This document shows, piece after piece, positions 1 to 45,947 of a DNA stretch of 48,404 bases (position 1 is its first letter; each line of letters begins with the position of its first letter). The notes under the pieces are model-generated. The model had not been told where the DNA came from and ran no database searches. It saw only the letters and a program-made list of their open reading frames with translations. The stretch lies in the IMG/VR virus record IMGVR_UViG_3300045988_155859. One strand, written 5' to 3'. The translations under genes and the position numbers were made by a program. The DNA is from a virus. Lineage: Duplodnaviria > Heunggongvirae > Uroviricota > Caudoviricetes.

Positions 1-55
1 AATCAATAAGTTATACCATAAACGTACGTTTTCGTTCCATTGGCCCTCAAACCCC
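1..55 (-). mobile_element. Tn3-family (gamma-delta/Tn1000-like) terminal inverted repeat, left copy: 35-bp IR at 21-55 plus 20 bp of element interior (1-20)
   Basis: 21-55 is the exact reverse complement of 48350-48384 (GGGGTTTGAGGGCCAATGGAACGAAAACGTACGTT). It carries the GGGG terminus and TGGAACGAAAAC...ACGTT core that I recall from Tn3-family IRs. GGGG end faces the phage DNA; the interior faces the window edge. Confidence 0.75.
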
Positions 56-1057
56 TAGCTTGAGCTGAGGATTCAGGTTTTCGTCAAAGCTGATAAGTGC
101 TCTGGCGTTTCTGAGCAGATCAAGAAGTAAGGCTGATATCACATTTTCCTGAGTCATTGCTGGCAGATTTAGCGCCGCTTTGGTTTTCCCTGTTGCCTTG
201 TCAAACGCCTTGATTAGTTCCTTCCTGTAGTTCGGTTCCGTTAATAGCCGATTATGCTCTGTTGCCGCGCGGATAATCGTTTTTTCCTGGTACAGTCGTT
301 TAGCCAGATCACGCTCGTACTGTGTTTTTAACACGCTGCTGATAGCGTTAAAGGCTTCAATGTAGGCCAGCTTGATATCTTTCACGCTTGGACCGTCGAT
401 GCTCTCCATGAGCAAGGTAAATCCGTCTTTTGTCATGCGATAGATTGTTATTTCGCGGTCGCTTCCTTCCAGCGGTCGTTGCTCTTTAAAGAAGTGACGC
501 GCCGCAGCCGTGCGAGGAATGCGTAGCGCATCGATGGCCATAACGATGGAATTGTTTGTGGTGCTGAATGCTTGGGCAACATCGGCTGAGGTTGTGAGTG
601 GCTCGTTGTTGCACACTTTAATGTAAAACATCGGTTTGGCGTTGAGCGTATCGACAACCTCACGAGCATTGTTTGGCGAGACGGTTACGGTCGCGGCCGT
701 TTGCGCGTTCTGGCTGAAATAGCAGTCTTCCAGCCGTTCGAATACATCCCACGCCTGATCGGTTTCGAGCATTTTGGCGTGACGTGCAGCCCCGCGTTCT
801 GTCCAGAGAATGAGGGAGCGGGCATTTTTACCAACTAACCCGATTGTTTCAGGTCTGTTCTTGAACTCGCGTAATTCGTTTTTTTCAATTTTAAAGTAAT
901 GCTTTCCGGCTATGAATCGCGTCGTGTTGTTCAGAAAGTTATCAGAAATGTTTTTGATTTTTGTTCCGTATAACTGCGCCAGAAGTTCAGTTGTAATAAC
1001 GGGGATCTGGTTATGCAAGATAGGCTGTAGGGTGTTAACGGTCGGAAGCGTTTTCAT
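47..1057 (-). CDS. Phage antirepressor (ORF6N-like N-terminal region, Ant/KilA-C-like C-terminal region); 3' end replaced by transposon IR sequence
   Basis: 336-aa ORF with RBS GGGAGGTG before the ATG and ATGA overlap with the upstream small ORF. The last two codons and TGA stop (47-55) lie inside the inverted repeat, so the native C-terminus is missing. Confidence 0.65.
   Translation of the reverse strand: MKTLPTVNTLQPILHNQIPVITTELLAQLYGTKIKNISDNFLNNTTRFIAGKHYFKIEKNELREFKNRPETIGLVGKNARSLILWTERGAARHAKMLETDQAWDVFERLEDCYFSQNAQTAATVTVSPNNAREVVDTLNAKPMFYIKVCNNEPLTTSADVAQAFSTTNNSIVMAIDALRIPRTAAARHFFKEQRPLEGSDREITIYRMTKDGFTLLMESIDGPSVKDIKLAYIEAFNAISSVLKTQYERDLAKRLYQEKTIIRAATEHNRLLTEPNYRKELIKAFDKATGKTKAALNLPAMTQENVISALLLDLLRNARALISFDENLNPQLKLGV
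56..60. repeat. 5-bp target-site duplication TAGCT (left copy); partner at 48345-48349
   Basis: TAGCT lies immediately outside both IR termini in direct orientation, the 5-bp duplication size expected for Tn3-family insertions. Confidence 0.7.
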
Positions 1058-1245: not shown

Positions 1246-1410
1246 GGTGATAGTTCCCTTAAAGGTTAAGGATACTCACCACCGTCTGGTTCCAATCATT
1301 GGGTGGTGAGACGTACAGGGTTGGAACTACCGGTCACCATGGAATCCGGCGAGTCTTACGACTCCCCCGCACGCCCCACCATAATTTGGGTGTAGCAGTG
1401 CTTTACGCAT

Positions 1411-1430
1411 AAAAAAACCGCTAACGCGGT
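1411..1430 (-). terminator. Candidate intrinsic terminator (minus strand)
   Basis: Minus-strand hairpin ACCGC-GTTA-GCGGT followed by TTTTTTT; short stem. Confidence 0.35.
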
Positions 1431-1577
1431 ATGCGCCATGATGATTATCGGGGTTCCAATCCCGACCGTAGATTTTGCTACGGCTCGGAAAGTGTCCACC
1501 AATGGCGCATTCATGTCAATACGGCGGGATTTTAACAGAGATAACCACATAGCGTGGGTTTATTGGTAGGCAGAAAC

Positions 1578-1602: not shown

Positions 1603-2001
1603 TTCTTTCGTGCTGATCGGATTCGCGGTCCTTTCAGCATAACGTCGTTGTATAAACAACCACGCAAGCACAAGCAGCAAGTTAATTTTACCCAAAAGGT
1701 AATAATAGTCCACTATTATGCTTCAAAAAATTGTGGTTCTTGTTGTGCCTGCAAACTCACAGATTGTGGGTAGGTTACTGATTTTGTGAAAATAAACGAG
1801 TTTTTTCGTTTAATTTCTTTCCTATTACTAATCTTAAAATAATCGTAAAATACCTGTGGACCTTCCCGCCGATTCGCACCCGGGCACCGACTTTAGGGGA
1901 GGATTCTCCGTTGCCGTACATGCAAGCACAAGCAGCCGTGCTTGCTCTCGCGTTGTTTTCGTCGGTGGGGATGCCGTGAAACGGCCTGTAAGGGCCATAC
2001 A

Positions 2002-2124
2002 ATGAAAAAATACTGTATGTGTATTTTTATCGTTGTTACTGGGGCTTTGTTTACGCCACATGGGGAGGGTTGGAAGATTACTGATAACGCTCTGAATGTG
2101 ACGATAAACATTAGCAGCAAGTAG
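2002..2124 (+). CDS. Candidate small hydrophobic peptide (40 aa)
   Basis: MKKYCMCIFIVVTGALF... hydrophobic N-terminus, with a strong terminator immediately downstream; no recognisable family. Confidence 0.2.
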   Translation: MKKYCMCIFIVVTGALFTPHGEGWKITDNALNVTINISSK

Positions 2125-2129
2125 CGATT

Positions 2130-2153
2130 AGGCCCCTTCGGGGGCCTTTTTTA
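2130..2153 (+). terminator. Intrinsic terminator
   Basis: Perfect hairpin AGGCCCC-TTCG-GGGGCCT followed by TTTTTT. Confidence 0.7.
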
Positions 2154-2373: not shown

Positions 2374-2622
2374 TTACTTCTGGTTGTATTGAGCCTTGAG
2401 TAACTCAAAAGATTTTGTCAGCACTTCTTTCAATGACATATCCATTGAGCTGGCGAACGTTTTGTACTCGCGTTTAAATTCAGGGTCGACGTTAAACGCC
2501 ATTTGTGCCCCACCTGATTTGGTTCTGGTTGGCGTTTCAGTCGGGTCGAAAACCTGCGGTTGTTCGATCGATGGCGGTACGCCTTTGCTGTTCTTCTTTG
2601 GTGGTTTTGATGGTCCGGCCAT
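2374..2622 (-). CDS. parG: ParG-like ribbon-helix-helix centromere-binding partition protein
   Basis: 82 aa directly downstream of the ParA-like gene on the same strand. Basic, low-complexity N-terminal tail followed by AFNVDPEFKREYKTFASSMDMSLKEVLTKSFELL, which resembles the RHH region of TP228 ParG as I recall it. Confidence 0.65.
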   Translation of the reverse strand: MAGPSKPPKKNSKGVPPSIEQPQVFDPTETPTRTKSGGAQMAFNVDPEFKREYKTFASSMDMSLKEVLTKSFELLKAQYNQK

Positions 2623-2636
2623 GTGTATCCCCTCTT

Positions 2637-2665
2637 ATATAAATCTATAAAACTATAATTATATA
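2637..2665. repeat. AT-rich TATAAATCTATA-type motif cluster in the parF-parG intergenic region
   Basis: ATATAAATCTATAAAACTATAATTATATA; same motif family as 3341-3444, 7171-7200, 8388-8411, 13563-13600, 14708-14735 and 45995-46025. Confidence 0.6.
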
Positions 2666-3319
2666 TTACGCGGCAGTAGTCAGAGCCTCAAGCTGGTTGA
2701 TAATCCCCTGAATAACGTCGTCTGCCTTTTTGCGTGGCGCAACGTATGAGCATTCAATGAGGCTTAAGCCCTTATCCTGAGCTTTGCTCAGAGCTGGCTT
2801 GTGGGGAATGTACTTATCGACAACAAAGTATGGCGTATTAGCTAGGTACTCTTGGGCTTCAATGTAGTCGGCTTCGTTTTCAGCCGCGCCTGAGAACACC
2901 ATGCAAATTTTCTTGATTGGCACACCCTTTTTAACGATGCCGTGAGCTGTGTTAACGGTGGTTTCTAGGTCATCGGTAGAGAATCTGGTTGGCAAAATAA
3001 CCATATCCAGAAATTCAGAGAGCTTCGGTACTGATTCAGATGCGTAGGCACCGCCATCGACGATAACCAGGTCGTATACTTCTGATTCGATGATTTTCTG
3101 GACTTGTGATGGCGTGCCGCACGGCTGCGCCGCGATTGCAGGTTCGATATTGTTGGCCATTCTGCGTTGTACCCAACGCGTTACCGTTCCGTTAAGCACA
3201 TCCATATCGATCAGGCATACATTCCAGCCGGCCTTTGCATAAGCAACTGCTAAAGCACGGGCAATTGTTGATTTGGTTACGCCGCCTTTTCCGTTGAAAA
3301 TACCTACAGAGATAGTCAT
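2666..3319 (-). CDS. parF: ParF-like small ParA-family partition ATPase
   Basis: Deviant Walker A GKGGVTKST near the N-terminus and a length of about 217 aa. The second ATG (3319) has a GGAG RBS; the ORF track start at 3334 does not. Confidence 0.8.
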   Translation of the reverse strand: MTISVGIFNGKGGVTKSTIARALAVAYAKAGWNVCLIDMDVLNGTVTRWVQRRMANNIEPAIAAQPCGTPSQVQKIIESEVYDLVIVDGGAYASESVPKLSEFLDMVILPTRFSTDDLETTVNTAHGIVKKGVPIKKICMVFSGAAENEADYIEAQEYLANTPYFVVDKYIPHKPALSKAQDKGLSLIECSYVAPRKKADDVIQGIINQLEALTTAA

Positions 3320-3340
3320 TTGTCGAGACTCCATGTGTTT

Positions 3341-3444
3341 GGTTATATAATTCTATAAATCTATATTTATAGAACGAGGTAAGCATAACCAACTTTTTGG
3401 CGGATGAAAAGCGTTTTATATAATTATATAAATCTATAATCATG
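3341..3444. repeat. AT-rich iterated motif cluster upstream of parF (candidate centromere/operator)
   Basis: Two blocks, TATATAATTCTATAAATCTATATTTATAGA and TTTTATATAATTATATAAATCTATAATCA, immediately upstream of the parF start. Confidence 0.55.
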
Positions 3445-3469: not shown

Positions 3470-3844
3470 TCAGAGGTCAGCTATCGTTGATATCAGTTGA
3501 TTTGCTAGCTGTCGCTGTTTACGTGAGAGGGTGAGAGCAGCTTCTGAGCGGTCGCTAAGAGGGGTGTTTTCATCAAGAATCATGAGGCATACAGAAATAA
3601 TAGCCCTGTTATATGCCATCAATGGCTGGCACAGCTTCGATATCGCTGGCACATCGTATTGTAAGGCCGTTTTGAGGCAGACTTTTTGTTCTGATGCCAG
3701 ATGAAGGATAGATTCTATCCAGTCGATATCTTTCTCATTATCAATGATTTGGCATAACATACACTCAATCGCTATGTTCAACGCTTGGATTTCGATTCCA
3801 GCAGTGATCAGAGTTTCGTTTTTATTGGCTGTATGTAATTCCAT
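3470..3844 (-). CDS. Hypothetical protein
   Basis: 124-aa ORF between the partition cassette and cI; operator-like palindrome in its upstream region. Confidence 0.45.
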   Translation of the reverse strand: MELHTANKNETLITAGIEIQALNIAIECMLCQIIDNEKDIDWIESILHLASEQKVCLKTALQYDVPAISKLCQPLMAYNRAIISVCLMILDENTPLSDRSEAALTLSRKQRQLANQLISTIADL

Positions 3845-3936: not shown

Positions 3937-4593
3937 TCATAACCAGTTGACAACACTAACTACGCGGCCAAGAACTTTATAACGCTTAAATTCCTCGTTA
4001 TTCAGATGCTTAGTGTTCATTTCAGCATCCCTTTCGGTTGACAGCATAACAGCATTGTCACCCGGTATGACTCTACAGTGCCTCAAAACAACCAGGCCAT
4101 TTCTGTCTTCAAGGGCATAGATCCCCTCATGAATCTCTGTATCGTCTGTATTAATCAGGACTTGGGAGCCTGGGGATATTGTTGGTGACATTAACTCATC
4201 GTTGCTCTGGAGAACTGACAGAGACGATGGGTTGATGTTCTTGCTTCGTAGAATCTCCTGTTCTATCGCCAGCACTGGCTTTTCTCCGGCGTGCGATGCT
4301 ATGTCATTTTTTATAGCTACAAGCCCAGGAATAACAGGAGCGTTAGTATTCTGGGGTGGGAACGGGTTATCTGTTAAGCACGCGATATAAGGCGCTGATG
4401 CTTTCAGGGCGTGCGCGATTTTCTTGATGGCAGGTATAGATGGTTGTCTTAATCCGGCCTCATAGTTCTGCAAGGTGCTTAAGCCTATTCCAGTGACTTG
4501 CTGGAGATCTCCGGCAGTCATGCCGGATTGTTTCCGTAGAGTCTGAATGCGCAGACCTATTTCTTTCTTGATGTTCTCGTCGTTGCTTTTCAT
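3937..4593 (-). CDS. cI: CI-like repressor (N-terminal HTH, C-terminal LexA/S24-like domain)
   Basis: 218 aa: N-terminal HTH region (GMTAGDLQQVTGIGLSTLQNYEAG), linker, then a C-terminal domain with conserved Ser and Lys candidates. Divergent from the Cro-like gene across an operator-rich intergenic region. Confidence 0.8.
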   Translation of the reverse strand: MKSNDENIKKEIGLRIQTLRKQSGMTAGDLQQVTGIGLSTLQNYEAGLRQPSIPAIKKIAHALKASAPYIACLTDNPFPPQNTNAPVIPGLVAIKNDIASHAGEKPVLAIEQEILRSKNINPSSLSVLQSNDELMSPTISPGSQVLINTDDTEIHEGIYALEDRNGLVVLRHCRVIPGDNAVMLSTERDAEMNTKHLNNEEFKRYKVLGRVVSVVNWL

Positions 4594-4712: not shown

Positions 4713-4727
4713 CTCACGATATGTGGT
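4713..4727. promoter_or_regulatory. Weaker operator-like site CTCACGATATGTGGT
   Basis: Right half-site TGTGGT conserved, left half degenerate. Confidence 0.4.
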
Positions 4728-4734
4728 TTTAATA

Positions 4735-4749
4735 CCACATATCGTGGTT
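4735..4749. promoter_or_regulatory. Operator ACCACATATCGTGGT
   Basis: ACCAC-N5-GTGGT dyad just upstream of the Cro-like gene RBS. Confidence 0.6.
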
Positions 4750-4767: not shown

Positions 4768-5262
4768 ATGACCTTTCAGGAGTGGGTTGACGAAAATGGA
4801 GGCCAAATTGGTGTTGCCAGAAAGTTTGGCTTTACGTCATCACTGATTGGTGCCTGGTATCGCTTCGAGAGATTCCCTCGTGCGGATAACCTGACGCTGC
4901 TGGTGGCGTATTCGGAAGGCCGGATTAACGTCCAGCAATGGGCGGCAGATTTTGCCGAACGTCAGCGCCAGCGTAGCGATGGCACATCGGTTCGGCAGAA
5001 CAAGATCAAAGGGAATCTCCCTGTTAACTGCTTATCAAGGCTGAAAGCGGTTTTCTCTGAGCTGGGGATGCCTGCGGAGCGTTGCAATCTACGCGGTCCG
5101 CGATTCATTGCTCGCTGGAAACACTCACATGTAACCGTTTCAGAGGTTCGTGATGCGATTACCGTGCTGGAGCTTAAGAATAAAGATTCCAGCGATATCG
5201 AGCTGATTCATAAGGAGATTAGCAACGCCCGGCGTTCAGCACTTGGGAGGCTTGAGGAATGA
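4768..5262 (+). CDS. Cro-like or other early HTH regulator (164 aa)
   Basis: First rightward gene opposite cI, with GGAG RBS. N-terminal QIGVARKFGFTSSLIGAWYRFERFP resembles Cro/YdaS-type HTH; longer than a canonical Cro. Confidence 0.5.
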   Translation: MTFQEWVDENGGQIGVARKFGFTSSLIGAWYRFERFPRADNLTLLVAYSEGRINVQQWAADFAERQRQRSDGTSVRQNKIKGNLPVNCLSRLKAVFSELGMPAERCNLRGPRFIARWKHSHVTVSEVRDAITVLELKNKDSSDIELIHKEISNARRSALGRLEE

Positions 5263-7118: not shown

Positions 7119-7170
7119 AAGTGTCATTTTGAGCTGTTTTGATGGTGTGTAGACATCGGGAACATCGAAA

Positions 7171-7287
7171 ATCTATAAATATATAATTATAGATTTATAT
7201 AAAAAGTGCTTTACAGGTGGGAAAAAATTTCCTAAGGTTATACCCGAAACCGAGCGATACCCGCCCTGGTTAAACCGGAGAAATCTG
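7171..7287 (+). promoter_or_regulatory. Repeated promoter/5'-leader cassette, copy A
   Basis: ATATAATTATAGATTTATATAAAAAG-GCTTTACAGGTGGGAAAAAATTTCCTAAGGTTATACCCGAAACCGAGCGATACCCGCCCTGGTTAAACCGGAG then ATG; near-identical to 14708-14818 and 45995-46110. Contains TTTACA (candidate -35) and GGAG RBS. Confidence 0.5.
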
Positions 7288-8355: not shown

Positions 8356-8387
8356 CAGTAAGCCTACGGCGGGATGTCTCCCGCCGT

Positions 8388-8411
8388 ATATAGAATTATA
8401 TATTTATATAA
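8388..8411. repeat. AT-rich motif cluster (ATAGAATTATATATTTATATAAATG)
   Basis: Same TATA-rich motif family, upstream of the 8412 ORF. Confidence 0.45.
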
Positions 8412-8714
8412 ATGTATAAGGACGCCTCGACAATGAAACGCAAAATTATTAACCCCCAAGATGTGATTAATTTCCTGACCGATCACCCATGTTCAAAAGT
8501 GGACGTAATCGCGGAGCACATTGGTGTGTCGCAGAACTCTATGCGTTGCAGACTGAGAAGCATGGTTGCCGAAGGACAGATAACAACCAGGAAAATAAAT
8601 GGTTGCCTGTACTACTCCGCTAAACCGGAATTGCCATTTGGCATGAATCCTAACTCCATGTTGTTTAACACCTTATTAGCCAAAGTTAAGCCGTTGAGAG
8701 GGGCTGTGGCATGA
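8412..8714 (+). CDS. Putative winged-helix DNA-binding protein
   Basis: 100-aa ORF with VDVIAEHIGVSQNSMRCRLRSMVAEGQI helix-turn-helix-like segment; true start may be the internal Met at 8433. Confidence 0.4.
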   Translation: MYKDASTMKRKIINPQDVINFLTDHPCSKVDVIAEHIGVSQNSMRCRLRSMVAEGQITTRKINGCLYYSAKPELPFGMNPNSMLFNTLLAKVKPLRGAVA

Positions 8715-11960: not shown

Positions 11961-12356
11961 ATGTCAGCAGAACCAATTTCCGGTACGGCCGTTGCTGCTG
12001 GTGGCCTGATGGGTGCCAGCGTTTTTGGTATTGCAACTGGTATTGATTACGGCGTTGTATTCGGGGCATTTGCTGGCGCTGTTTTCTATGTTGCTACAGC
12101 GGTGAATATTAGCCGTCTCAAGCTGATTGGCTATTTCTTTACATCGTTCATTGTTGGAGTGATTGGAGCGCCGTTAGTTGGCTCATTTCTTGCCAAATGG
12201 ACCAGCTACAACGATCGACCTCTTGATGCGCTTGGTGCGGTTATTGTGGCTGCATTGACAATTAAAATCCTCACGTTCGTAAACAGCCAGGATCTCGGTA
12301 GCATCTTTGGAATACTTTCCCGCTTACGTGGAGGGGGTTCAAATGGTAAGCAGTGA
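11961..12356 (+). CDS. Holin-like membrane protein
   Basis: 131 aa with several hydrophobic segments; first gene of a cassette that continues with the endolysin and spanins. Confidence 0.5.
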   Translation: MSAEPISGTAVAAGGLMGASVFGIATGIDYGVVFGAFAGAVFYVATAVNISRLKLIGYFFTSFIVGVIGAPLVGSFLAKWTSYNDRPLDALGAVIVAALTIKILTFVNSQDLGSIFGILSRLRGGGSNGKQ

Positions 12357-12639
12357 CCCGTCAGCACTGATTAATGCGGTGCTTTGCACAGTAATAGTAA
12401 TGGCGCTGATGCTTTATCGACGGAAAGACTCCAGGCATCGTCCATTTGTTTCCTTTCTGGCTTATATCTACGTCATTGTATACGCCAATGTTCCCTTCCG
12501 TTATGTGTTCGGTCTTTATCAAGAATCCCACTGGCTGGTGGTTATTGGAAATCTGATTATCTGCATCGTTGTTCTGTATTTCAGGGGCAATCTGGCGCGG
12601 ATAGTTGACGCATTAGGATTTAATCATGACCAAAGATGA
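12343..12639 (+). CDS. Second small membrane protein (holin or antiholin-like)
   Basis: Start at the internal Met with GGAGGGGG RBS; hydrophobic segments; sits between the holin and the endolysin. Confidence 0.45.
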   Translation: MVSSDPSALINAVLCTVIVMALMLYRRKDSRHRPFVSFLAYIYVIVYANVPFRYVFGLYQESHWLVVIGNLIICIVVLYFRGNLARIVDALGFNHDQR

Positions 12640-13168
12640 GATTTTTAACAGCATTCTTGGAAAAGAGGGCGGCTATGTGGATCACCCTGACGACAAGGGA
12701 GGCCCAACAAAGTGGGGCATTACTCAGAACACTGCCCGTGCTCATGGATACCGTGGCGATATGCGCGATTTAACCCGCGAACAGGCACTAGAAATCCTTG
12801 AGGCTGATTACTGGTACGGACCACGCTTTGATCAGGTGGCCGCATTATCCTCTGATATTGCCGCAGAGCTGTGTGATACCGGTGTGAATATGGGGCCAAC
12901 AGTGGCGTCCAAAATGCTTCAACGCTGGCTGAATGTGTTCAATCTGCGTGGGAAGCTGTATCCCGATTTGGATGCAGATGGACGAATCGGTCCACGTACC
13001 ATTAATGCGCTGCGTGCTTATCTTGGGAATCGGGGAAAAGACGGCGAACGGGTGATGCTGACGTCGCTGAACTGTACGCAGGGCGAACGCTATCTGGAGT
13101 TGGCGGAGAAGCGCGAGGCGAATGAGTCGTTTGTCTACGGCTGGATGAAAGAGCGAGTGGTGGTATGA
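12626..13168 (+). CDS. Endolysin, GH108-type muramidase with peptidoglycan-binding domain
   Basis: N-terminal EGGYVDHPDDKGGPTKWGIT motif characteristic of GH108 lysozymes. Confidence 0.8.
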   Translation: MTKDEIFNSILGKEGGYVDHPDDKGGPTKWGITQNTARAHGYRGDMRDLTREQALEILEADYWYGPRFDQVAALSSDIAAELCDTGVNMGPTVASKMLQRWLNVFNLRGKLYPDLDADGRIGPRTINALRAYLGNRGKDGERVMLTSLNCTQGERYLELAEKREANESFVYGWMKERVVV

Positions 13169-13443
13169 CTGGTTTGAAGGCCGTTTTGTCATTTATTGGC
13201 ACAATTATATTGGTTGCATTCGGCGCGTTTGGTTTTGGTCGTATGAAGGGGCGAGAAAAGGCCGAAGATGAAGCTGAAAAGCAGCGCATTAATGAGAATG
13301 CAGCCGCCGTAAAAGCCACTGCGGAGCGGCGTATAGAAGTGACAAAAGAGGCGGGGAATGTACAGCAGAGTGTTAACCATATGGCTGATGACGATGTTGA
13401 TCGCGAGCTGCGGGAGTCGTGGAAGCGTCCCGGTGGTGGTTGA
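13165..13443 (+). CDS. Rz-like inner-membrane spanin
   Basis: 92 aa with an N-terminal transmembrane segment then a charged, coiled-coil-like region; directly after the endolysin. Confidence 0.6.
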   Translation: MTGLKAVLSFIGTIILVAFGAFGFGRMKGREKAEDEAEKQRINENAAAVKATAERRIEVTKEAGNVQQSVNHMADDDVDRELRESWKRPGGG

Positions 13444-13567
13444 TACCGCCTGTGATTGGGTAAAGCCCATCTACCTGACTGATCACGACATCGATGTTAT
13501 GGACCGCCAGACAAAGAAAGATATTCTGGCTCATAACAGGGCATGGGAAATCAACTGCCGAAAGTAA
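13358..13567 (+). CDS. Rz1-like outer-membrane lipoprotein spanin, overlapping Rz in another frame
   Basis: Lipoprotein-type signal with lipobox-like LIASC; starts inside the Rz gene and extends beyond it. Confidence 0.55.
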   Translation: MYSRVLTIWLMTMLIASCGSRGSVPVVVDTACDWVKPIYLTDHDIDVMDRQTKKDILAHNRAWEINCRK

Positions 13568-13600
13568 TATATATTTCTATAATTATATAAATATATAGTT
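13563..13600. repeat. AT-rich motif cluster (TATATATTTCTATAATTATATAAATATATAG)
   Basis: Same TATA-rich motif family, downstream of the lysis cassette. Confidence 0.45.
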
Positions 13601-13736
13601 ACAACATTCTATGCGCTTTTCTCATGGGCGCACGCATCAACCATGTTTGTCTGATATGCCGCCGCGCCCAAAAATCCTGAATTTATTGGCTGGGATTTTC
13701 GTGCGCGGCGCCACACCAGACAAACAAATCAAATAT

Positions 13737-13812
13737 GGCCCCTTAGCTTAGTGGTTAGAGCAGGCGACTCATAATCGCACGGTCATCGGTTCAAATCCGG
13801 TAGGGGCCACCA
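13737..13812 (+). tRNA. tRNA with anticodon CAU (Met, or Ile if lysidine-modified)
   Basis: 76 nt folding by hand into a cloverleaf: 7-bp acceptor stem (GGCCCCT/AGGGGCC), D-arm GCTT...GAGC, anticodon loop CTCATAA, T-loop TTCAAAT, encoded CCA end. Confidence 0.8.
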
Positions 13813-14119: not shown

Positions 14120-14707
14120 ATGGAGGCAATTGCATTGTTTAATCTGATTTATGCAGATCCCCCCTGGGAATACAAAGATAAGTGTAAGGATGGGAATCGT
14201 GGAGCTGGTTTTAAGTATCCAACGATGAAAGCTGAGGATATTGCTCGTATTCCTGTCTGGCAGCTTGCTAATCCTGAATCGTGTTTGTTGGCCATGTGGT
14301 GGGTTCCGACTCAGCCAGAAGAAGCGTTGCTGGTGGTGAAAGCATGGGGATTCAGGCTTATGACCATGAAGGGCTTCACATGGAACAAATGTGGTAGCCG
14401 ACAACCAGATAAGCTGGTGATGGGGATGGGGCATATGACTCGTGCAAACAGTGAAGATTGCTTGTTTGCGGTAAAAGGCAAATTGCCGACCCGCCTTGAT
14501 GCGGGGATCATTCAGTCGTTTACATCGCCTCGTCTGGAGCATTCTCGGAAGCCTGATGTGGTTCGTGACAAGCTGGTAAGGCTGTTAGGTGATGTTCCTC
14601 GTATTGAGCTGTTTGCTCGCGGTGATTTACCTGATGGTTGGCATGGCTGGGGCAACCAGTGCAATGGAGGTATCCAGTTGCATGATGCTCTCTGGCAAGT
14701 GGCATAG
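14120..14707 (+). CDS. MT-A70-family DNA N6-adenine methyltransferase
   Basis: IYADPPWEY (DPPW catalytic motif) near the N-terminus; 195 aa. Confidence 0.8.
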   Translation: MEAIALFNLIYADPPWEYKDKCKDGNRGAGFKYPTMKAEDIARIPVWQLANPESCLLAMWWVPTQPEEALLVVKAWGFRLMTMKGFTWNKCGSRQPDKLVMGMGHMTRANSEDCLFAVKGKLPTRLDAGIIQSFTSPRLEHSRKPDVVRDKLVRLLGDVPRIELFARGDLPDGWHGWGNQCNGGIQLHDALWQVA

Positions 14708-14818
14708 AATTATATAATTATAGATTTATATAAAAAGCGCTTTACAGGTGGGAAAAAATTTCCTAAGGTTATACCCGAAACCGAGCGATACCCGCCCTGG
14801 TTAAACCGGAGAAATCTG
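14708..14818 (+). promoter_or_regulatory. Repeated promoter/5'-leader cassette, copy B
   Basis: Near-identical to copies A and C; begins directly after the methyltransferase stop and ends at the 14819 ATG. Confidence 0.5.
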
Positions 14819-16690: not shown

Positions 16691-17314
16691 ATGACAAAAC
16701 ATCTTAATGTGGTTTCTTTACCACTTTCTGTGTTGATTGGTTATGAAAAGAACGCTCGCACACACTCCGTGGAGCAGGTAGATCAGATTGTTGCCAGCAT
16801 ACAGGAGTACGGATGGACTAATCCGATCCTGATAGACGAGAACAACGTTGTAATTGCTGGTCATGGTCGAATTGCTGCGGCCACTCAGTTGGGGATGGAT
16901 GATGTTCCCTGCATTGTTCTGGCTGGGCTAACGGAGAATCAGAAGAAGGCATATCGTCTGGCCGACAACCGTATTCCGCTGAATGCTGGTTGGGATGAAG
17001 AGTTGTTAAGCGCGGAGCTTGCAGATCTTGCGGCCGATGATTTTGCTCTGGACTCAATTGGTTTTACTCAGCGCGAACTGGATAACTTATTGAGTGCGGC
17101 GGTCTACGATGACACAGAGGGTATGGATATCCCATTTGAGAAGGATGAGGCCAAATCAGGCGTAAAAGTTCAGTACCTGTCATTTGGAGGTCATAAAATC
17201 CCGGCAACGGATGAGGAAGCGGATCGTTTTGACTGCGCGGTGTCTCGTTATGTTGATGATAATGGTAGCTATATCGGATTTGTATCCGCATTGCTGGCTG
17301 GGGAGGTGTGCTGA
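16691..17314 (+). CDS. ParB/Srx-fold (ParB N-terminal domain) protein, paralogue 1
   Basis: ...NPILIDENNVVIAGHGRIAAA...QKKAYRLADN..., clearly paralogous to the 19981 ORF; no obvious partition-type HTH region. Confidence 0.65.
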   Translation: MTKHLNVVSLPLSVLIGYEKNARTHSVEQVDQIVASIQEYGWTNPILIDENNVVIAGHGRIAAATQLGMDDVPCIVLAGLTENQKKAYRLADNRIPLNAGWDEELLSAELADLAADDFALDSIGFTQRELDNLLSAAVYDDTEGMDIPFEKDEAKSGVKVQYLSFGGHKIPATDEEADRFDCAVSRYVDDNGSYIGFVSALLAGEVC

Positions 17315-18687
17315 TGCTTCACCTGAATTACGACATAACGCACCTACGCGGCGCGGAATATAACCCGCGTTTTATCGGTGAGGATGATCTTGCGAGGCTG
17401 GCGGAAAGCGTCAGGGAGCTGGGGCTTGTGAAGCCATTGATAGTGCGCGGCGATTTGCTGGTGGCGGGACACCAAAGGACGAAGGCGCTACGTAAGTTGG
17501 GAATAACGCGTGCTGCGGTGTATGTGTTGCCCTGTGAAACGACGGTATACGACGAAGTACGGTTTAACCAACTGCATAACGGAACGGATTTTGATAGCGG
17601 AGATGAGCGTTGCAGGGTGTCCGGTCTGGAAGATAAGCATGGTTTTGTTCAGGTATCGGCAAGCCAGATCTCAGGCAATATGCGCGCGAAAATGGCATAT
17701 GTTCGAAAGAACATAGCGGAACTGGTTATCAAGTATGGTCCGTGGGGTGGTTGTGTTGCTACTCAGTCTGGTGAGGTTATTCACTGTGCTCAGTATGCAT
17801 TAGCAGCGAAAATGACGCGCACACCGCTAACGGTGTTTGTGATCCCTGATGTTGAGAAGGAAAAATACCAAAGTTATCTGAATAAAACTTATGGTGTATT
17901 TGAGTATTCTCATCTGGAGAAAACAACATACATCCAGACGTATGCGCAGCTTATGCGGTTGCGTAATGGTGGCAGCCTGAAATCAAACCTGTATGAGTCG
18001 TTGATCCTCCCGATCATTGCCAAGACGCCAAGAGGAATTGATTTTGGTTCGGGGCAGGGAGACTACGCGCGAATGCTCAGGGCAAAGGGATATAACCTGC
18101 ATGATCTCGAGCTTTTCCGCCGTAAGGGCGCTGGAAACACTCTGGATAGGACCGCAACAAACCGGATGATTGATACGCTGGTGGACGACTTAAAAACGCG
18201 AGGGCGTTACGACTACGTGATTTGCGATAGCGTTTTGAACTCGGTCGATAGTGTCGAGGCTGAATGGTCTGTTCTGACGGTTCTGAAAGGCCTGTGTAAA
18301 GCTGGTGGGTCAATATTCTTTTCTGGTCGTAGCCGTGGAGAGCTGGAAACAGTCCTGAAGCAAACACAAGCGGCGAGTTCCAAAAGCCGGCTTTATTTTA
18401 TTGATCATAACGGTTTTACCGCGTTGTACCGGAAGGGGCACTGGTTTTACCAGAAGTTTCACTCTGATGATGAAGTGAAGCAGTTGTGTCGTGTACATGG
18501 TTTCAGGATTAAGCGGTCAATATTCAACTGTAAGAGCTGGTATTTGCACGTTATTAACGATGATTCTCTTCGCTGGGAGAGTCTGGAGAAAGCTGTTCGT
18601 TTTGAGTTTGAGTTGCCGTTGCCTGGTGGTTCAACAATCGGACGATCTGATGATGTGCTGGCGGCTTTCCGGCCGTTGATTAAGTAG
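17308..18687 (+). CDS. ParB/Srx-like N-terminal domain fused to a class I SAM-dependent methyltransferase domain
   Basis: N-terminal ...LIVRGDLLVAGHQRTKALRKLG...; C-terminal GIDFGSGQGDYARML (motif I) and YDYVICDSVLNSV; no DPPY/NPPY motif seen. Confidence 0.6.
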   Translation: MLMLHLNYDITHLRGAEYNPRFIGEDDLARLAESVRELGLVKPLIVRGDLLVAGHQRTKALRKLGITRAAVYVLPCETTVYDEVRFNQLHNGTDFDSGDERCRVSGLEDKHGFVQVSASQISGNMRAKMAYVRKNIAELVIKYGPWGGCVATQSGEVIHCAQYALAAKMTRTPLTVFVIPDVEKEKYQSYLNKTYGVFEYSHLEKTTYIQTYAQLMRLRNGGSLKSNLYESLILPIIAKTPRGIDFGSGQGDYARMLRAKGYNLHDLELFRRKGAGNTLDRTATNRMIDTLVDDLKTRGRYDYVICDSVLNSVDSVEAEWSVLTVLKGLCKAGGSIFFSGRSRGELETVLKQTQAASSKSRLYFIDHNGFTALYRKGHWFYQKFHSDDEVKQLCRVHGFRIKRSIFNCKSWYLHVINDDSLRWESLEKAVRFEFELPLPGGSTIGRSDDVLAAFRPLIK

Positions 18688-19980: not shown

Positions 19981-20571
19981 ATGACTCTAAAAATCGAATA
20001 TTTACCAGTCGGTAAGCTGCTCAGATATGCCAAAAATTCACGGACTCATTCAGATGAGCAAGTTGAACAGTTGGTGAACAGTATCCGTGAGTTCGGTTTC
20101 ACTAATCCTGTGCTGATCGATGAAAAGAATGAACTGATTGCGGGGCATGGTCGGCTTGCAGCAGCCGAAATTCTGGAAATGGATAAAGTTCCGGCGATTC
20201 GGTTGAGTAACCTTTCTGAAAAACAGAAGAAGGCTTACAGGATTGCAGATAACAAGCTGGCCTTAAATGCTGGCTGGGATATGCAGCTTCTGGCCGAAGA
20301 AGTCAAAGAGTTAATGGATGATGATTTTGATATTGATCTGCTTGGGTTTAATGATGCAGAGCTTGACGAAATGTTAAGCGATGAACAGCCGCAGGAAGAA
20401 GACGATAATTCTTCCCCTGTTGTTCAAATTAAGTACCTGGCTATTGATAAAGAACGTATTCCCGCGACGGATATGGAAATTGCATTGTTGCTGGATGTTT
20501 ATCGTCAGTACCACGACGCGCATGAAACGCATGAGGGATTTGTTCAGTATCTTGCTAATGGTTGCAAGTAA
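19981..20571 (+). CDS. ParB/Srx-fold protein, paralogue 2, immediately upstream of the terminase genes
   Basis: ...NPVLIDEKNELIAGHGRLAAA...QKKAYRIADN..., paralogous to 16691-17314. Confidence 0.65.
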   Translation: MTLKIEYLPVGKLLRYAKNSRTHSDEQVEQLVNSIREFGFTNPVLIDEKNELIAGHGRLAAAEILEMDKVPAIRLSNLSEKQKKAYRIADNKLALNAGWDMQLLAEEVKELMDDDFDIDLLGFNDAELDEMLSDEQPQEEDDNSSPVVQIKYLAIDKERIPATDMEIALLLDVYRQYHDAHETHEGFVQYLANGCK

Positions 20572-31276: not shown

Positions 31277-34069
31277 ATGGCCAGCAATAAGAACTTTAAG
31301 CTGGCTTTTGAAATTGGCGGCAAAGTTGCCGCCTCTCTCCCCAAAAGTTTTACTACAGCTAATCAGGCTGTTGCTAAATTAAATGCAGAGCTTGCTGGAT
31401 TAACGAAAGAACATGGGGAAATTCAAAAGCTACAATCTGTAAAAGTAAAGGTTGGACAGACTGCCCTCGAATATCATAAAGCTGCCGCTCGCGTTGAAGA
31501 GTTACAGAAGCAAATAAAAAACACGGCCAATCCAACCAGAGCGATGCTTCGTGACTTTGAGAAGGCAAAAACACATTCATCAAATTTACGAGCATCACTA
31601 CGTTCTCAGCGTGAAGAACTGGCCGCTTTAAAGTCTGCCTATCAGGGAGCTGATACATCTGCCAGAGCTTTGGCCTCAAGAGAGAAAGAGCTTAAAGCCA
31701 GCATTGATCGTAATCGTGAGGCTCAGGCCCGTAGCGTTGAGCAGGTTAACCGCTACAGAACGGCTTTGGCTTTAGCCAGAGCAAATGTTCAGCAAGTGAA
31801 AAAACAGCAGGAGGAACTTAACCGGGCATTAGAAAAACAACGTATTGATAAAATTAACAGCTATAAAAATGCGTTGGCTGAAGCACGGAAAAATGTTCTT
31901 GCAGTAAAACGTGCTCAGGAGGAGTTAAACCGCGCGTTGGAAAGGCAGCGTGAATTGAAGCGAGAGCATCTTGGTGAGGCAAAGAGTCAACTTGTAAGGT
32001 CAGGATTACAAACTGGTGCTGTAGCGGCTGGTGCATTTGCTGCTGCTAACAATGCAGCAAATTTCAATCGTGAAAACAAAATGATTGGTCTTACGGCAGA
32101 TATGAAGCCGGAAGAAGTTCAGGCGATGGGGCAGGCGATGCTTGTTACCGGAACGGCTACCAACCAGTTTGCATCTGATATTCAGGCCGCTCAGGGTTTT
32201 CTCGTCGCTGCTGGGCAGGATTATAAAGAGGCTCAGGCGAATCTACTAACTATTGGGCGAACAGCTACAGCTACTGGCTCTGATATCCTCGATGTCTCGA
32301 AAGCATCATTTACATTAAGTGACTCATTGAAGATTGATCCATCTCAAATGAAGTCTGCAATGGGGATTCTGGTTCAGGCAGGGAAAGAGGGGAACTTTGA
32401 ATTTAAAGATATGGCCAAAAATCTTCCTGTGCTTGGTGCTCAGTTCCAGGCATTAAAAATGGGAGGTAAAGAAGCAGCCGCGACGATGGGTGCAGCTTTG
32501 CAGATAGCTCGCAAGGGGGCTGCAACTTCGGATGAGGCTGCTAATAATATGAACAACTTTTTGGCAAAAATACTTTCCCCTGAAACACTAAAAAAAGCAA
32601 AGAAAAATTTCGGTGTAGATTTATATAAAATTGTTACAACAGCGCAGAAAAAAGGGAAGAATCCATTCGAAGCTGCAATGCATTCTGTCATGAAAATGAC
32701 TAAGAACGGAGATCAGAAGTTACTTGGTGAACTATTTGGCGATATGCAGGTTCAGAACTTTGTTCGTCCGATGATTCAAAACTGGAAGGAATACCAGAGA
32801 ATCAAAGCAACATCTCTTGGAGCTGGAAGTGCTGTTATTGACCGCGATTTTGCCAACATAACGAAAGATAATGCGGAGCGATTGAAACAATTACGTATTC
32901 AGGCTAGCAATGCATCATTAAGTTTTGGTCAGGCCTTGCAACCTGCTTTGAATGCCGCGCTTAGTGTTTTGGTTCCGCTGATTACAAAAATTAGTGAATT
33001 TGTAGCTAACAACCCCAATTTTGTGTCTCAGATAGTGATGGCGGCAGGTGCGTTTCTAACCATGAAAAGTGTGGTTATAGCGTGTAGGGTAGCTATGCTG
33101 GCTTTATCTGTAGCGACAAAGCTAACACCCTTCGGGTGGATTCAGATGGCTATATCTGCGCTGGTTGCCGCAGGAATATTGCTCTATCAGAATTGGGATA
33201 AGATCAGAGATTATGCTGTCAGAGTTTGGCCTTCTGTTAAGGAATATACAGTTAAATCATTTGAGGCTATAAAAAACTTTATCTTAAACTTTGACCTCAA
33301 TGGATGGATTATATCTATGTTTGGTAAAGCATGGGATTATCTTTCCAACATAAACTGGAGTTCGGCAGGAGTAAGAATTTACAGTACATTAATTAGTGCT
33401 TTTAAATGGATGTCTCCGCTTCCGTTCTTAATTAAAGCATTTAAAATTACAACAAATTACCTTTCTGGCATTAACTGGAGCGAAACAGGAAAGAAAATCA
33501 TAGATACACTGGTATCTGTTTTTATGCGTTTTTCACCAGTTGGACTCTTTATAAGAGCATTCCAATCTGTAACGACTTATTTATCTGGAATAAACTGGAG
33601 TGAGTCAGGCGCAAAAATAATTGAGACGTTAATCACTGGGATAAAATCAAAAGCAAATGCTTTAATTAATGAAGTGAAAGGCGTTTTTTCTTCTGTACGT
33701 GAGTATTTACCGTTCTCTGACGCGAAAAAAGGTCCATTCTCACAGCTAACAAAGTCAGGTGGTGCAATAATGACTACTCTGGCATCAGGTGTTAGCAGGA
33801 ATAACAGCTTACAGAATGCAATAGCAAGCAAGTTCGGGCAATCAAATTTATCACCTCACGGGATATCTGCCGCTGGGACTTCTGGACCTCGCCAGAACGT
33901 TAACGCTGTGACTGGTGGAATAACCTATTCACCTGTAATCAATCTTCCGGCTGGTTCACCAAAGGAAACTGAGGCGGCAGCTAAAAGAGCATTAGATGCG
34001 GGATATTCTGATTTTGAGAAGAAATTGAGTGCTCATATGTTCCAACAACGGAGATTAAGTTTTGGATGA
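31277..34069 (+). CDS. Tail tape measure protein
   Basis: 930 aa; coiled-coil-rich N-terminal third with repeated QEELNRALE segments, central hydrophobic stretch, position after the chaperone pair. Confidence 0.85.
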   Translation: MASNKNFKLAFEIGGKVAASLPKSFTTANQAVAKLNAELAGLTKEHGEIQKLQSVKVKVGQTALEYHKAAARVEELQKQIKNTANPTRAMLRDFEKAKTHSSNLRASLRSQREELAALKSAYQGADTSARALASREKELKASIDRNREAQARSVEQVNRYRTALALARANVQQVKKQQEELNRALEKQRIDKINSYKNALAEARKNVLAVKRAQEELNRALERQRELKREHLGEAKSQLVRSGLQTGAVAAGAFAAANNAANFNRENKMIGLTADMKPEEVQAMGQAMLVTGTATNQFASDIQAAQGFLVAAGQDYKEAQANLLTIGRTATATGSDILDVSKASFTLSDSLKIDPSQMKSAMGILVQAGKEGNFEFKDMAKNLPVLGAQFQALKMGGKEAAATMGAALQIARKGAATSDEAANNMNNFLAKILSPETLKKAKKNFGVDLYKIVTTAQKKGKNPFEAAMHSVMKMTKNGDQKLLGELFGDMQVQNFVRPMIQNWKEYQRIKATSLGAGSAVIDRDFANITKDNAERLKQLRIQASNASLSFGQALQPALNAALSVLVPLITKISEFVANNPNFVSQIVMAAGAFLTMKSVVIACRVAMLALSVATKLTPFGWIQMAISALVAAGILLYQNWDKIRDYAVRVWPSVKEYTVKSFEAIKNFILNFDLNGWIISMFGKAWDYLSNINWSSAGVRIYSTLISAFKWMSPLPFLIKAFKITTNYLSGINWSETGKKIIDTLVSVFMRFSPVGLFIRAFQSVTTYLSGINWSESGAKIIETLITGIKSKANALINEVKGVFSSVREYLPFSDAKKGPFSQLTKSGGAIMTTLASGVSRNNSLQNAIASKFGQSNLSPHGISAAGTSGPRQNVNAVTGGITYSPVINLPAGSPKETEAAAKRALDAGYSDFEKKLSAHMFQQRRLSFG

Positions 34070-43988: not shown

Positions 43989-44481
43989 GTTCTGATATAT
44001 ATATGCAAATGGTTTTTTATAATAGATGCACTAAACAAATAAATGCAAAATCACTTTCTTTTATTAAGACTTTCTTTATTTAACTTACGCAGGCTTTGCC
44101 TGTGAATATGTTCGCCCTTGCAGCGAGCTAAAGCTCGCGCCGGTTCGAGTCGCTACGCTCAAATATACCTCCTCCGGCACTTGCCGGAGGCATGGAGCAG
44201 CCTGATCATCCTTTTCGAAACGGCACGTTTCGAACTATACAAAATCAATTTATATAAGGCCGAAATAAGGCCTACGGCCGGGCTTTGCAGGAGGAAGGGG
44301 CGAGCCTTATCAATAAACGTCGATAAATACGCACACAGTAGCCATCAGAACGCGATAAAATGTAAGAAACATCATTTCCTATTAGACATAGAAAACTTGT
44401 CTTATACGCAATGTAGTAAATTTCTATTGCCACATAGGAAAAGATTTCCTACCATCGTAGATATAATAAATGGAGATGGTT

Positions 44482-44769
44482 ATGGATAAAGATACTGTTT
44501 TAAAAATGTTGAATCCGGCTTGTTTAAAAAAAGCGGATGAATGGGAATCTCCTACATGTGGAGAAGTTCGGGCAGTCATTGGCCTGACCGGAATGAGCGG
44601 CTCGCAGTTAGCCAAAAAACTAGGCTTAAAAGATAGTCGCAATGTTCGCAACTGGCAGATGTTAAAGGAGTCCACATCCAGATCCAGCATTCCGTATGCA
44701 GCCTGGGCGCTGCTGTGTTACTTCGCTGGGTTAGGGTTAATCTTCATTGATAACAAAACAGATGTTTGA
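44482..44769 (+). CDS. Putative HTH DNA-binding protein with a hydrophobic C-terminus
   Basis: ...VRAVIGLTGMSGSQLAKKLGLKDSRNVRNWQ...; start at the third ATG, which has a GGAG RBS. Confidence 0.4.
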   Translation: MDKDTVLKMLNPACLKKADEWESPTCGEVRAVIGLTGMSGSQLAKKLGLKDSRNVRNWQMLKESTSRSSIPYAAWALLCYFAGLGLIFIDNKTDV

Positions 44770-45056: not shown

Positions 45057-45300
45057 GGCTTTCGCGTCGAAAATGAGGCGAAACTGAAAACGAGATTTCA
45101 TTAACAAATAAGCAACATAAAAAACGGTGGAAAACGCCCAGGAAAACATGATCTTTTGAGCGGATTTTTTAGATCCGACAATGAACGGTGATCCGGTGGT
45201 GCCGATAACGTCCATTATGTTAAATAGCCCCGTTTTTCTTGAAATTATAACTCACAGGTTATATAGTTAGTGATATAAACTACAGGTTATAGGATTGAGC

Positions 45301-45648
45301 ATGTGGACGGTACTTTTTAGCCAGCGATTTGACGACTGGCTAAATGAGCAAGAAGACGCTCTTCAGGAAAAGGTTTTGGCTGATTTGAAAAAGCTACAGG
45401 TTTACGGACCTGAGTTACCCAGGCCATATGCCGATACCGTAAAAGGTTCTCGGTACAAAAATATGAAAGAGCTTCGCGTTCAGTTTTCTGGCCGTCCGAT
45501 AAGAGCCTTTTATGCGTTCGATCCGATTCGCCGGGCCATCGTTCTTTGTGCAGGAGACAAAAGTAACGATAAGCGGTTTTATGAAAAACTGGTGCGTATA
45601 GCTGAGGATGAGTTTGCAGCACATCTGAACACACTGGAGAGCAAGTAA
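45301..45648 (+). CDS. RelE/ParE-superfamily toxin (HigB-like)
   Basis: ...DTVKGSRYKNMKELRVQFSGRPIRAFYAFDPIRRAIVLCAGDKSNDKRFYE... typical of this toxin family; stop overlaps the antitoxin start. Confidence 0.75.
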   Translation: MWTVLFSQRFDDWLNEQEDALQEKVLADLKKLQVYGPELPRPYADTVKGSRYKNMKELRVQFSGRPIRAFYAFDPIRRAIVLCAGDKSNDKRFYEKLVRIAEDEFAAHLNTLESK

Positions 45649-45947
45649 TGAGAACATTAGATGAGGCGATTGCCAGCCGTTCACCTGAAAGCCAGGCGCG
45701 AATTAAAGAAATGGCAGATGAGATGATTCTTGAGGTCGGCTTGCAGATGATGCGTGAAGAACTCCAGTTATCACAAAAACAGGTTGCTGAGGCGATGGGT
45801 ATAAGCCAGCCAGCAGTAACAAAGCTGGAGCAGCGCGGAAATGATTTAAAGCTGGCGACATTAAAGCGTTACGTTGAAGCTATGGGAGGCAAATTAAGCC
45901 TGGATGTTGAGCTTCCCACAGGAAAACGAATAGCGTTTAACATCTGA
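45648..45947 (+). CDS. HTH (XRE-type) antitoxin, HigA-like
   Basis: ...LQLSQKQVAEAMGISQPAVTKLEQ... HTH; ATGA overlap with the toxin gene. Confidence 0.75.
   Translation: MRTLDEAIASRSPESQARIKEMADEMILEVGLQMMREELQLSQKQVAEAMGISQPAVTKLEQRGNDLKLATLKRYVEAMGGKLSLDVELPTGKRIAFNI

Follow-up and report, generated by a model that had tools for sequence, protein, structure and literature searches.

The closest described counterpart of the locus analysed here is the type Ib ParF-ParG partition system of the E. coli/Salmonella plasmid TP228, in which OF contains eight degenerate ACTC boxes and parH twelve, separated by regular 4-bp AT-rich spacers (Wu et al., PMC3130281). One ParG dimer occupies each box, in flexible orientation, and OF serves as both operator and centromere, with four-box sites retaining approximately half of the centromere activity (PMC3130281). 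In pSM19035 (inc18, Firmicutes), six parS arrays for the RHH protein omega overlap the copS, delta and omega promoters, with at least four contiguous repeats needed (PMC9499535), and the action of omega depends on how far its sites are filled, partial occupancy giving activation and full occupancy repression (PMC4627068). Dispersed centromeres and a reported effect on late gene expression have been ascribed to the Sop system of the linear phage-plasmid N15, as cited in PMC11652158 (Ravin, Rech and Lane 2008, J Bacteriol 190:3538). A phage-plasmid has to combine two ways of life, and crosstalk between the circuits for plasmid maintenance and phage expression is known for very few such elements (P1 and N15). 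The N15 system is reportedly of type Ia (SopA/SopB), with an HTH ParB protein and inverted-repeat sites rather than an RHH protein with tetramer-box arrays. On the IncP plasmids RK2/RP4, KorB is a partition protein and a global transcriptional regulator with a dozen operators spread over the plasmid; it is an HTH protein of the ParB family whose binding site is a 13-bp palindrome and whose action can extend over a distance, and the system involves neither repeat arrays nor a phage.

The window (the whole 48,404-bp stretch of DNA analysed in this work) is a circular phage-plasmid, and its par region is 98% identical to Yersinia phages vB_YpM_39/41/44. Its par locus resembles that of TP228 in encoding a small Walker ParA followed by an approximately 80-aa predicted RHH protein with a flexible N-terminal tail, and in carrying degenerate arrays of 4-bp boxes with an 8-bp period, predicted binding sites in the window, that cluster at the parFG promoter. 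It differs in that the boxes are ATAG/ATAT rather than ACTC, the arrays comprise 3–5 boxes rather than 8 and 12, the arrays lie on either side of the promoter and occupy the whole parF–parG gap as well, and another five are scattered over the genome at promoters elsewhere or at operon junctions, which is not a feature of TP228; in addition, the sequence similarity is weak for ParF (4DZZ, E = 3e-4) and not significant for ParG (E = 0.46). The likeness to pSM19035 would lie in an RHH centromere binder that is also a global regulator, with one dimer per repeat and arrays at several promoters, whereas the repeats of pSM19035 are 7-bp heptads (WATCACW) rather than 8-bp units and belong to a Gram-positive plasmid, not a phage, with copy control, partition and toxin-antitoxin operons as targets. 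As far as the citing account of N15 goes, that element is likewise a phage-plasmid whose partition protein has several sites dispersed through the phage genome. A literature search found no published description of the arrays of the present phage-plasmid family, and these comparisons, made at the level of sequence, support as new here a predicted RHH partition protein of type Ib whose putative regulon is spread over several promoters of an enterobacterial phage-plasmid, for which omega, N15 Sop and KorB are the precedents.

The element and its predicted type Ib par locus

Among 5426 complete E. coli genomes, 72 harbour the element family, one of them being that of reference strain ATCC 25922, and relatives are known from Salmonella, Citrobacter, Klebsiella, Yersinia and Serratia; an IncFII-type RepA is encoded by close relatives from Citrobacter, Salmonella and E. 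coli. On the minus strand of the window, the gene for a CI-like repressor is followed by a 124-aa gene, the parF-like gene and the parG-like gene, while a rightward early operon on the other strand leads to the lysis genes (Table 1). Located 3' of the lysis genes are tRNA-Met and an MT-A70 methylase gene, and then genes for ParB_N-like nucleases, terminase and virion proteins. Three ParB_N-domain proteins are encoded upstream of the terminase genes (16691–17314, 17314–18687 and 19981–20571), two of them nuclease-like and one fused to a methyltransferase. They were considered as the partition adaptor and rejected, as they are nuclease- or methyltransferase-type phage proteins encoded beside the terminase.

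The parF-like product, which starts with MTISV as in the vB_YpM_39 annotation, matched the Pfam CbiA/ParA/MipZ models and the NCBIfam ParA_partition model (E = 4e-22 over residues 5–206, below the equivalog cut-off). It is a deviant Walker-A ParA of the approximately 200–220-aa class without an N-terminal DNA-binding domain, as is characteristic of type Ib. The parG-like gene lies 43 bp downstream. Its 82-aa product had no Pfam or NCBIfam match at E ≤ 0.01 and no match in a phmmer search against the PDB. A word-indexed homology search retrieved relatives at ≥80% identity only, and an exhaustive search was needed to recover the distant family, which comprises approximately 50 proteins of similar size. 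In the AlphaFold model of the 82-aa protein, residues 1–40 form a basic tail without secondary structure (pLDDT 58–67), followed by an extended segment and helices at residues 47–59 and 64–80. The best Foldseek matches of this model were all RHH proteins (PutA, CdbA, AmrZ, CopG, Arc and ParD), with target-normalised TM scores of 0.65–0.87, probabilities of up to 0.97 and E-values that were not significant because the domain is only approximately 43 residues long. According to the model, the gene downstream of parF would encode a small RHH protein with a flexible N-terminal tail, again as in type Ib systems. A profile built from 45 family sequences aligned with TP228 ParG (1P94) in register over the strand and the helices, at the E-value given above. 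As this is not a significant match to the ParG sequence family, the protein is named ParG-like by its architecture, with family membership unproven.

Table 1. Genes, arrays and putative promoter elements of the window.
Feature	Position	Strand	Description
parG-like gene	2374–2622	-	82-aa product, translation
Array A	2633–2668	-	Four boxes, ATAT.AATT, ATAG.TTTT, ATAG.ATTT, ATAT.AAGA; fills the parF–parG gap
parF-like gene	2666–3319	-	217-aa small Walker-type ParA ATPase, type Ib, without N-terminal HTH
Array B	3345–3372	-	Three to four boxes; between putative parF -10 and RBS
Putative parF promoter	3382–3410	-	-35 TTTTCA (3405–3410), 17-nt spacer, -10 TATGCT (3382–3387)
Array C	3414–3443	-	Three boxes; immediately upstream of the parF -35
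124-aa gene	3470–3844	-	Directly upstream of parF; without recognised domain
CI-like repressor gene	3937–4593	-	HTH/S24
Rightward early operon	start 4768	+	DUF3560/primase-like gene, many small genes, then lysis genes
Cassette 1 array	7169–7204	+	Four boxes, ending approximately 5 nt upstream of the -35
Cassette 1 promoter and leader	7210–7287	+	-35 TTTACA (7210–7215), -10 TAAGGT (7233–7238), then SD
Cassette 1 downstream gene	ATG 7288	+	DUF3560/primase-like
Array D	8386–8419	+	Four boxes; terminator-like hairpin before, RBS of 93-aa gene after
93-aa gene after array D	8433–8714	+	
Lysis genes	11961–13443		Holins, endolysin, Rz
Array E	13561–13604	+	Four to five boxes; after lysis genes, 130 nt upstream of tRNA-Met
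tRNA-Met	13737–13812		
Cassette 2	14704–14818	+	Array 14704–14735, -35 14741–14746, -10 14764–14769, leader
Terminase genes	terS 20571, terL 21128		
Cassette 3	45995–46110	+	Array 45995–46026, -35 46032–46037, -10 46055–46060, leader
Cassette 3 downstream gene	46111–46491	+	126-aa, phrog_8090

Arrays of 8-bp units at eight intergenic positions

The original prediction was that one AT-rich dyad motif recurs in seven places, on both sides of the parF-like gene, in three promoter cassettes and at two further sites. The motif TATAAATCTATA or its complement occurs exactly six times (plus strand, 2638, 3354 and 3427; minus strand, 7188, 14719 and 46010), and allowing up to one mismatch resulted in 14 matches where 0.34 would be expected (sd 0.62; none of 100 dinucleotide shuffles gave more than 3), so the motif is not one that base composition would predict. 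It is present at every one of the seven places, at 8388–8418 and 13586–13597 as one-mismatch variants only. One further one-mismatch match, at 32614–32625 inside a 930-aa ORF, is not accompanied by an array. As the interval 3341–3444 contains two separate arrays, there are eight arrays in the seven places, and all eight are intergenic.

The description of the motif as a dyad was not upheld. Read in register, the arrays consist of 8-bp units, [A/C/G]TA[T/G] followed by four A/T (WWWW), with 3–5 units per array and boxes that are direct or inverted; an example is the series ATAG.AATT, ATAT.AATT, ATAG.ATTT, ATAT.AAAA, and inverted boxes (CTAT) are occasional. Runs of at least four consecutive units were found at 6 places, compared with 0.00 in 60 first-order Markov simulations, and runs of at least three at 11 places, compared with 0.42. 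The three cassette arrays are part of one 127-nt repeat and the number of independent arrays is therefore approximately six rather than eight; over these six, identity at lag 8 was 0.68, compared with 0.415 ± 0.037 in same-array shuffles, none of 1000 of which reached 0.68. Degenerate 4-bp boxes in either orientation with 4-bp spacers, and hence an 8-bp period, correspond to the TP228 type, with box and spacer indistinguishable in the window's own arrays because every position there is A/T.

Two other identities for the arrays were considered and rejected. Iterons do not agree with the 8-bp units, the IncFII-type RepA and the occurrence of arrays in plasmids with other replicons. CI operators do not agree with a CI/early intergenic region that is without arrays and has a different palindrome with 14-bp arms, nor with plasmids that are without CI and keep the arrays. 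The inverted repeat in the CI/early-operon intergenic region, with perfect 14-bp arms at 4714–4747 (TCACGATATGTGGT...ACCACATATCGTGG), is likely a CI operator or a bidirectional terminator with no relation to the arrays.

Placement of the arrays at putative promoters

Read along the minus strand, the leader of parF contains array C, TTTTCA, 17 nt, TATGCT, array B and GGAGTCTCGACAAATG. Repeats A–C would thereby flank the putative parF promoter and the parF–parG gap, a layout that agrees with type Ib. Outside the par operon, a 127-nt promoter cassette is present in three copies (7174, 14705 and 45996) that are identical from array to start codon in a three-copy alignment, in the order array, AAAAAG(T/C)G, CTTTACA, 17-nt spacer, TAAGGT, leader of approximately 50 nt, GGAGA and ATG. 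The -35 elements of all three cassettes are abutted by an array, as would be expected of a global regulator with sites at promoters beyond its own operon. Cassette 2 precedes an 89-aa gene at 14819 that opens the block leading to the terminase and virion genes, and no other recognisable promoter lies closer on the upstream side of the ParB_N-like nuclease, terminase and virion genes. No recognisable promoter or -35 element was found downstream of arrays D and E, which may be roadblocks, extra centromeres or promoters of their own. A strict consensus promoter scan called neither the cassette promoters nor the parF promoter, and its promoter-like matches were not enriched (7 versus 10.1 expected), so the promoter assignments rest on a geometry that is conserved across relatives.

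The cassettes contain a second conserved element. Between the -35 and -10 of cassette 1 is the near-palindrome GGGAAA-AAA-TTTCCT (7219–7235), and TGGGAAA-AAA-TTTCCTA is also located at 14750–14766 and 46041–46057. The corresponding sequence is TAGGAAA-ATA-TTTCCTA in locus L029 (see below) and TAGGAC-TAAAA-GTCCTA (TAGGAC-N5-GTCCTA) in other groups, whatever the type of ParG box. A fourth putative promoter (44427–44455; TTGCCA at 44427–44432 and TACCAT at 44450–44455) contains TAGGAAA-AGA-TTTCCTA at 44435–44451 and has no array. It is followed by an HTH-like gene at 44470–44769 (95–99 aa, phrog_8351, with a weak repressor match), whose product is a candidate autoregulated binder of the palindrome. 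The spacer palindrome is a putative second operator that is independent of the arrays and could be the main control; given its conservation regardless of box type and the array-less fourth promoter, the ParG-like protein would be at most a co-regulator of the cassettes.

The cassette leaders also contain a stem-loop (7248–7271, 14779–14802 and approximately 46070–46093). Among 14 leaders from five groups, four of the seven predicted pairs show compensatory changes (AACC/GGTT, GGCC/GGCC and GACC/GGTC), with two broken cells, and a search of Rfam gave no family match for the stem-loop, which may have a part in stability, translation or antitermination.

Conservation of the layout with exchange of the unit sequence

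Related loci were gathered using the ParF alignment as a handle; the ParG alignments had no conserved stretch. The set includes the Serratia phage-plasmids CP083756.1 (P2-like tail) and NZ_CP074139.1 (lambda-like tail), the conjugative MOBC plasmid NZ_CP037908.1 (L008), contigs from Pectobacterium, Erwinia, Shimwellia and Pantoea, and IMG/VR contigs. Every related locus has a ParA gene followed by a gene for a 77–85-aa ParG-like protein, with arrays ahead of the parF -35 element and in the stretch from the -10 to the RBS, and in L008, L009, L011-15, L029, L037 and L038 the parF–parG gap also holds an array of the local unit type. A -35 and a -10 (TAxxxT) that are 17 nt apart are present at the corresponding positions of every relative, with TTTACA-17-TAAGCT at parF in L009 and TTTACT-17-TAATCT in L033.

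This layout is conserved in approximately six ParF/ParG groups with different unit sequences. The units are of TATA type (ATAG/ATAT + W4) in the window and L029, CTAT/ATAT in L008 and L011-15, TTTAAA type (TTTAAATA or TCTTTAAA) in L009, L010 and L033, GATATC type (GATATAAATATATC) in L031, L035 and L036, and ATATAAAT in L034. The GC-rich loci have CTATAAAG/CCATAAGG (L037, GC 62%) and TAACGCAT/TGACGCAA (L038, GC 64%), the latter with ACGC-type boxes and 4-bp spacers. In nearly all loci, autocorrelation is highest or close to its highest at lag 8, most clearly so in L037 and L038 (0.46 and 0.52, compared with approximately 0.2–0.3 at other lags). When 10-mers shared between par-proximal DNA and remote clusters were tabulated, the matrix was block-diagonal, with remote arrays matching their own par locus. 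Orthologous promoters retain the array and exchange the unit type. In L031 and L034-36, the orthologue of the 126-aa gene has an array of the local unit type in front of it, and the distance from that array to the -35 is unchanged. In every phage-plasmid group, the cassette arrays are at the same short distance from the -35 and are joined to it by an A-rich linker, and the cassette architecture (array, -35, spacer palindrome, -10 and leader) recurs in all of these groups. A homologue of array E is present in L029. Arrays, 8-bp periodicity and placement were observed across these groups, and the unit sequence covaries with the ParFG module.

The arrays occur in phage-plasmids with myovirus or siphovirus modules, in conjugative MOBC plasmids and in GC-rich viral contigs, and no genes other than parF and parG are shared by all of these contexts. 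Searching with tblastn for the window's CI, 124-aa, 164-aa, HTH, RepA and cassette gene products gave no match in the conjugative and other plasmid loci, where the ORFs around parFG encode MobC, a thermonuclease, T4CP and unrelated proteins. These loci (L008 and L011-15) nonetheless have the full three-array layout, and their remote arrays are upstream of a nuclease gene and of a 113-aa gene. In pTP33 of Y. pestis, the most distant relative examined (ParG-like match over 36 residues), no 8-bp arrays were found upstream of parA. The cassette sequences are common to the window, the 48-kb plasmid of E. coli ATCC 25922 and approximately 65 other PLSDB plasmids; a search of E. coli chromosomes for the cassette promoter without parFG found none, and 211 of 214 places were on plasmids of the same family.

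The presumed DNA-reading beta-strands differ across groups (QMAFNV, QLNLYV, AMNFNV, QLLLRL, QLLLQL, LVNFRW and VAMNLR). Within one clade, Arg in the beta-strand (L031/35/36) as opposed to Gln (L034) tracks the presence as opposed to the loss of G/C at the box edge, and GATA is among the commonest 4-mers only where the Arg is present. Protein and box do not map onto each other one-to-one: ParG of the L008 type is only approximately 35% identical to that of the window and its boxes are also TATA-like, and the Serratia-type ParG is 44–46% identical, yet its boxes are TAAA. These approximately six natural specificity variants, with matched beta-strands and boxes, provide a data set for the DNA-recognition code of RHH centromere binders and would also be useful for studying partition incompatibility.

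Several arrays are joined to similar translation signals. The start context of the 93-aa gene (AAGGACGCCTCGACAATG, 8418–8435) resembles that of parF (3319–3336). An array followed by AAGGAC-N-CTCGACAATG is kept in L009, L010, L029 and L033, and an array followed by GTTGAGACCTCGACAATG in L031 and L034-36. The combination of an array and CTCGACAATG recurs before non-homologous genes (L009, L010, L029, L031 and L033-36), which suggests a mobile module of array and RBS or a shared post-transcriptional signal.

The ParG-like protein as candidate reader of all arrays

Because the unit changes in concert at all sites, the par-locus and remote arrays appear to be read by the same fast-evolving, element-encoded factor, and the proposal that a single protein serves both partition and promoter sites is supported. 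The ParG-like protein, which had been put forward for this role, is the best candidate, since parF and parG are the sole genes shared by all contexts, the 82-aa protein is modelled as RHH and the array design is like that of TP228. From sequence and structural model, we infer that the arrays are most likely its binding sites.

In the mechanism that we propose, dimers of the ParG-like protein would occupy neighbouring 4-bp boxes, each box taking a single dimer and successive dimers being 8 bp apart, in arrays of 3–5 boxes. Arrays A–C (approximately 11 boxes) would together form the centromere and autoregulatory operator of parFG, and the five remote arrays (approximately 20 more boxes) would be further binding sites, three abutting the -35 of identical sigma-70-type cassettes and two at operon junctions. 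The cassettes would place a DUF3560/primase-like gene, the block leading to packaging and virion genes, and a small plasmid-backbone gene under promoters tuned by bound ParG; as TP228 OF and pSM19035 omega suggest by analogy, full occupancy would by default mean repression. Through recruitment of ParF, the remote arrays may also increase the capacity of the centromere. Both the transcriptional effect, in sign and in size, and the centromere activity of the remote arrays are points that we infer by analogy, and the link from arrays to phage gene expression is suggested by the fixed placement beside -35 elements together with the same analogy. The outcome would be a single regulon through which the expression of phage and plasmid genes is tied to plasmid segregation and copy state. 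We regard it as probable that the parFG arrays are centromere and operator and that the remote arrays are ParG sites tuning promoters within one regulon. If so, a widespread family would have a ParG-type RHH protein with an apparent regulon of approximately eight arrays, several of them at phage and backbone promoters, and like arrays are found in conjugative plasmids with resistance genes such as cfr.

A possible but rather unlikely alternative keeps ParG as the binder of the remote arrays and makes these dispersed centromeres that load ParG-ParF, their promoter-proximal, AT-rich siting being a matter of convenience without meaningful effect on transcription. Four-box arrays keep partial centromere activity in TP228 (PMC3130281), four repeats are enough to activate pSM19035 ParA (PMC9499535), N15 has dispersed centromeres according to the work cited in PMC11652158 (Ravin 2008), and arrays D and E are not beside a recognisable -35. 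However, a constant short distance from array to -35 and an A-rich linker would be expected for transcription and not for segregation, and the fixed spacing across groups thus argues for a transcriptional role; moreover, the same sites do both jobs in known RHH systems.

The regulon reading could be taken further, to a ParG that acts as a copy-number-sensing co-repressor of lytic functions. At low copy number, in the plasmid state, ParG would sit on the arrays of the cassette promoters, that of the packaging and virion block among them, and hold the cassettes off together with the palindrome repressor until, during runaway replication after induction, approximately 30 boxes per genome copy titrate ParG and release the promoters. 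We consider this unlikely; were it true, segregation and the lysis–lysogeny decision would share one protein.

It is very unlikely that another element-encoded protein, either the product of the 124-aa gene or a small HTH protein, binds the arrays while ParG binds elsewhere. All phage-plasmid relatives do have a fast-diverging gene of approximately 124–130 aa in this position, with CI on one side and parF on the other, and the lack of a recognised domain in its product fits such a role, but L008 and L011-15 have the three-array layout and remote arrays with no detectable homologue of the 124-aa protein, CI or any other window protein tested. In all contexts, the arrays flank and separate parF and parG, and tetramer boxes repeated every 8 bp are the design of an array-binding RHH protein.

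That the arrays have no dedicated protein and are UP elements, curved DNA or sites of host nucleoid proteins (IHF, Fis or H-NS) is scarcely credible: the window arrays are pure A/T, the AAAAAG between array and -35 is presumably akin to a proximal UP subsite and each unit contains TATAAT strings resembling a -10, of which the consensus scan picked out two on the plus strand, but concerted switching of unit type among elements of related hosts counts against composition, host proteins and chance alike, the GC-rich relatives keep the 8-bp period with G/C boxes such as TAACGCAT, the lag-8 signal is gone in shuffled arrays and promoter-like matches are not enriched.

Other features of the window

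Adjoining the par locus, matches to C4 antisense RNA (Rfam, 84 bits; 1299–1386, minus strand) and isrK (Rfam, 70 bits; 1411–1484, minus strand) lie upstream of an ORF6N/Rha-type antirepressor-like gene (47–1057, minus strand), and these elements make up a predicted P1/P7 immI-like, RNA-controlled antirepressor module. Directly downstream of parG on the other strand is a full-length match to ryfA RNA (142 bits; 1856–2152, plus strand), a putative chromosomal-type sRNA/small-toxin locus borne by the phage-plasmid. In-frame direct repeats are present at 33337–33618 (three 42-nt copies with 120-nt spacing, inside the 930-aa ORF) and at 40920–41111 (three 33-nt copies in an ORF of the tail-fibre region).

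Directly upstream of cassette 3 is a HigB-like toxin and HTH antitoxin pair (45301–45947), whose promoter region (approximately 45100–45300) is shared with the conjugative plasmid L008. At 5001–5051, that plasmid (NZ_CP037908.1) also carries a cassette array and -35 that are 100% identical to the window over 47 nt. The end of IS26 adjacent to cfr truncates this fragment, whose neighbours are a higBA module and a diverged parFG with its own arrays, which indicates that regulatory modules have been exchanged between phage-plasmids and resistance plasmids.
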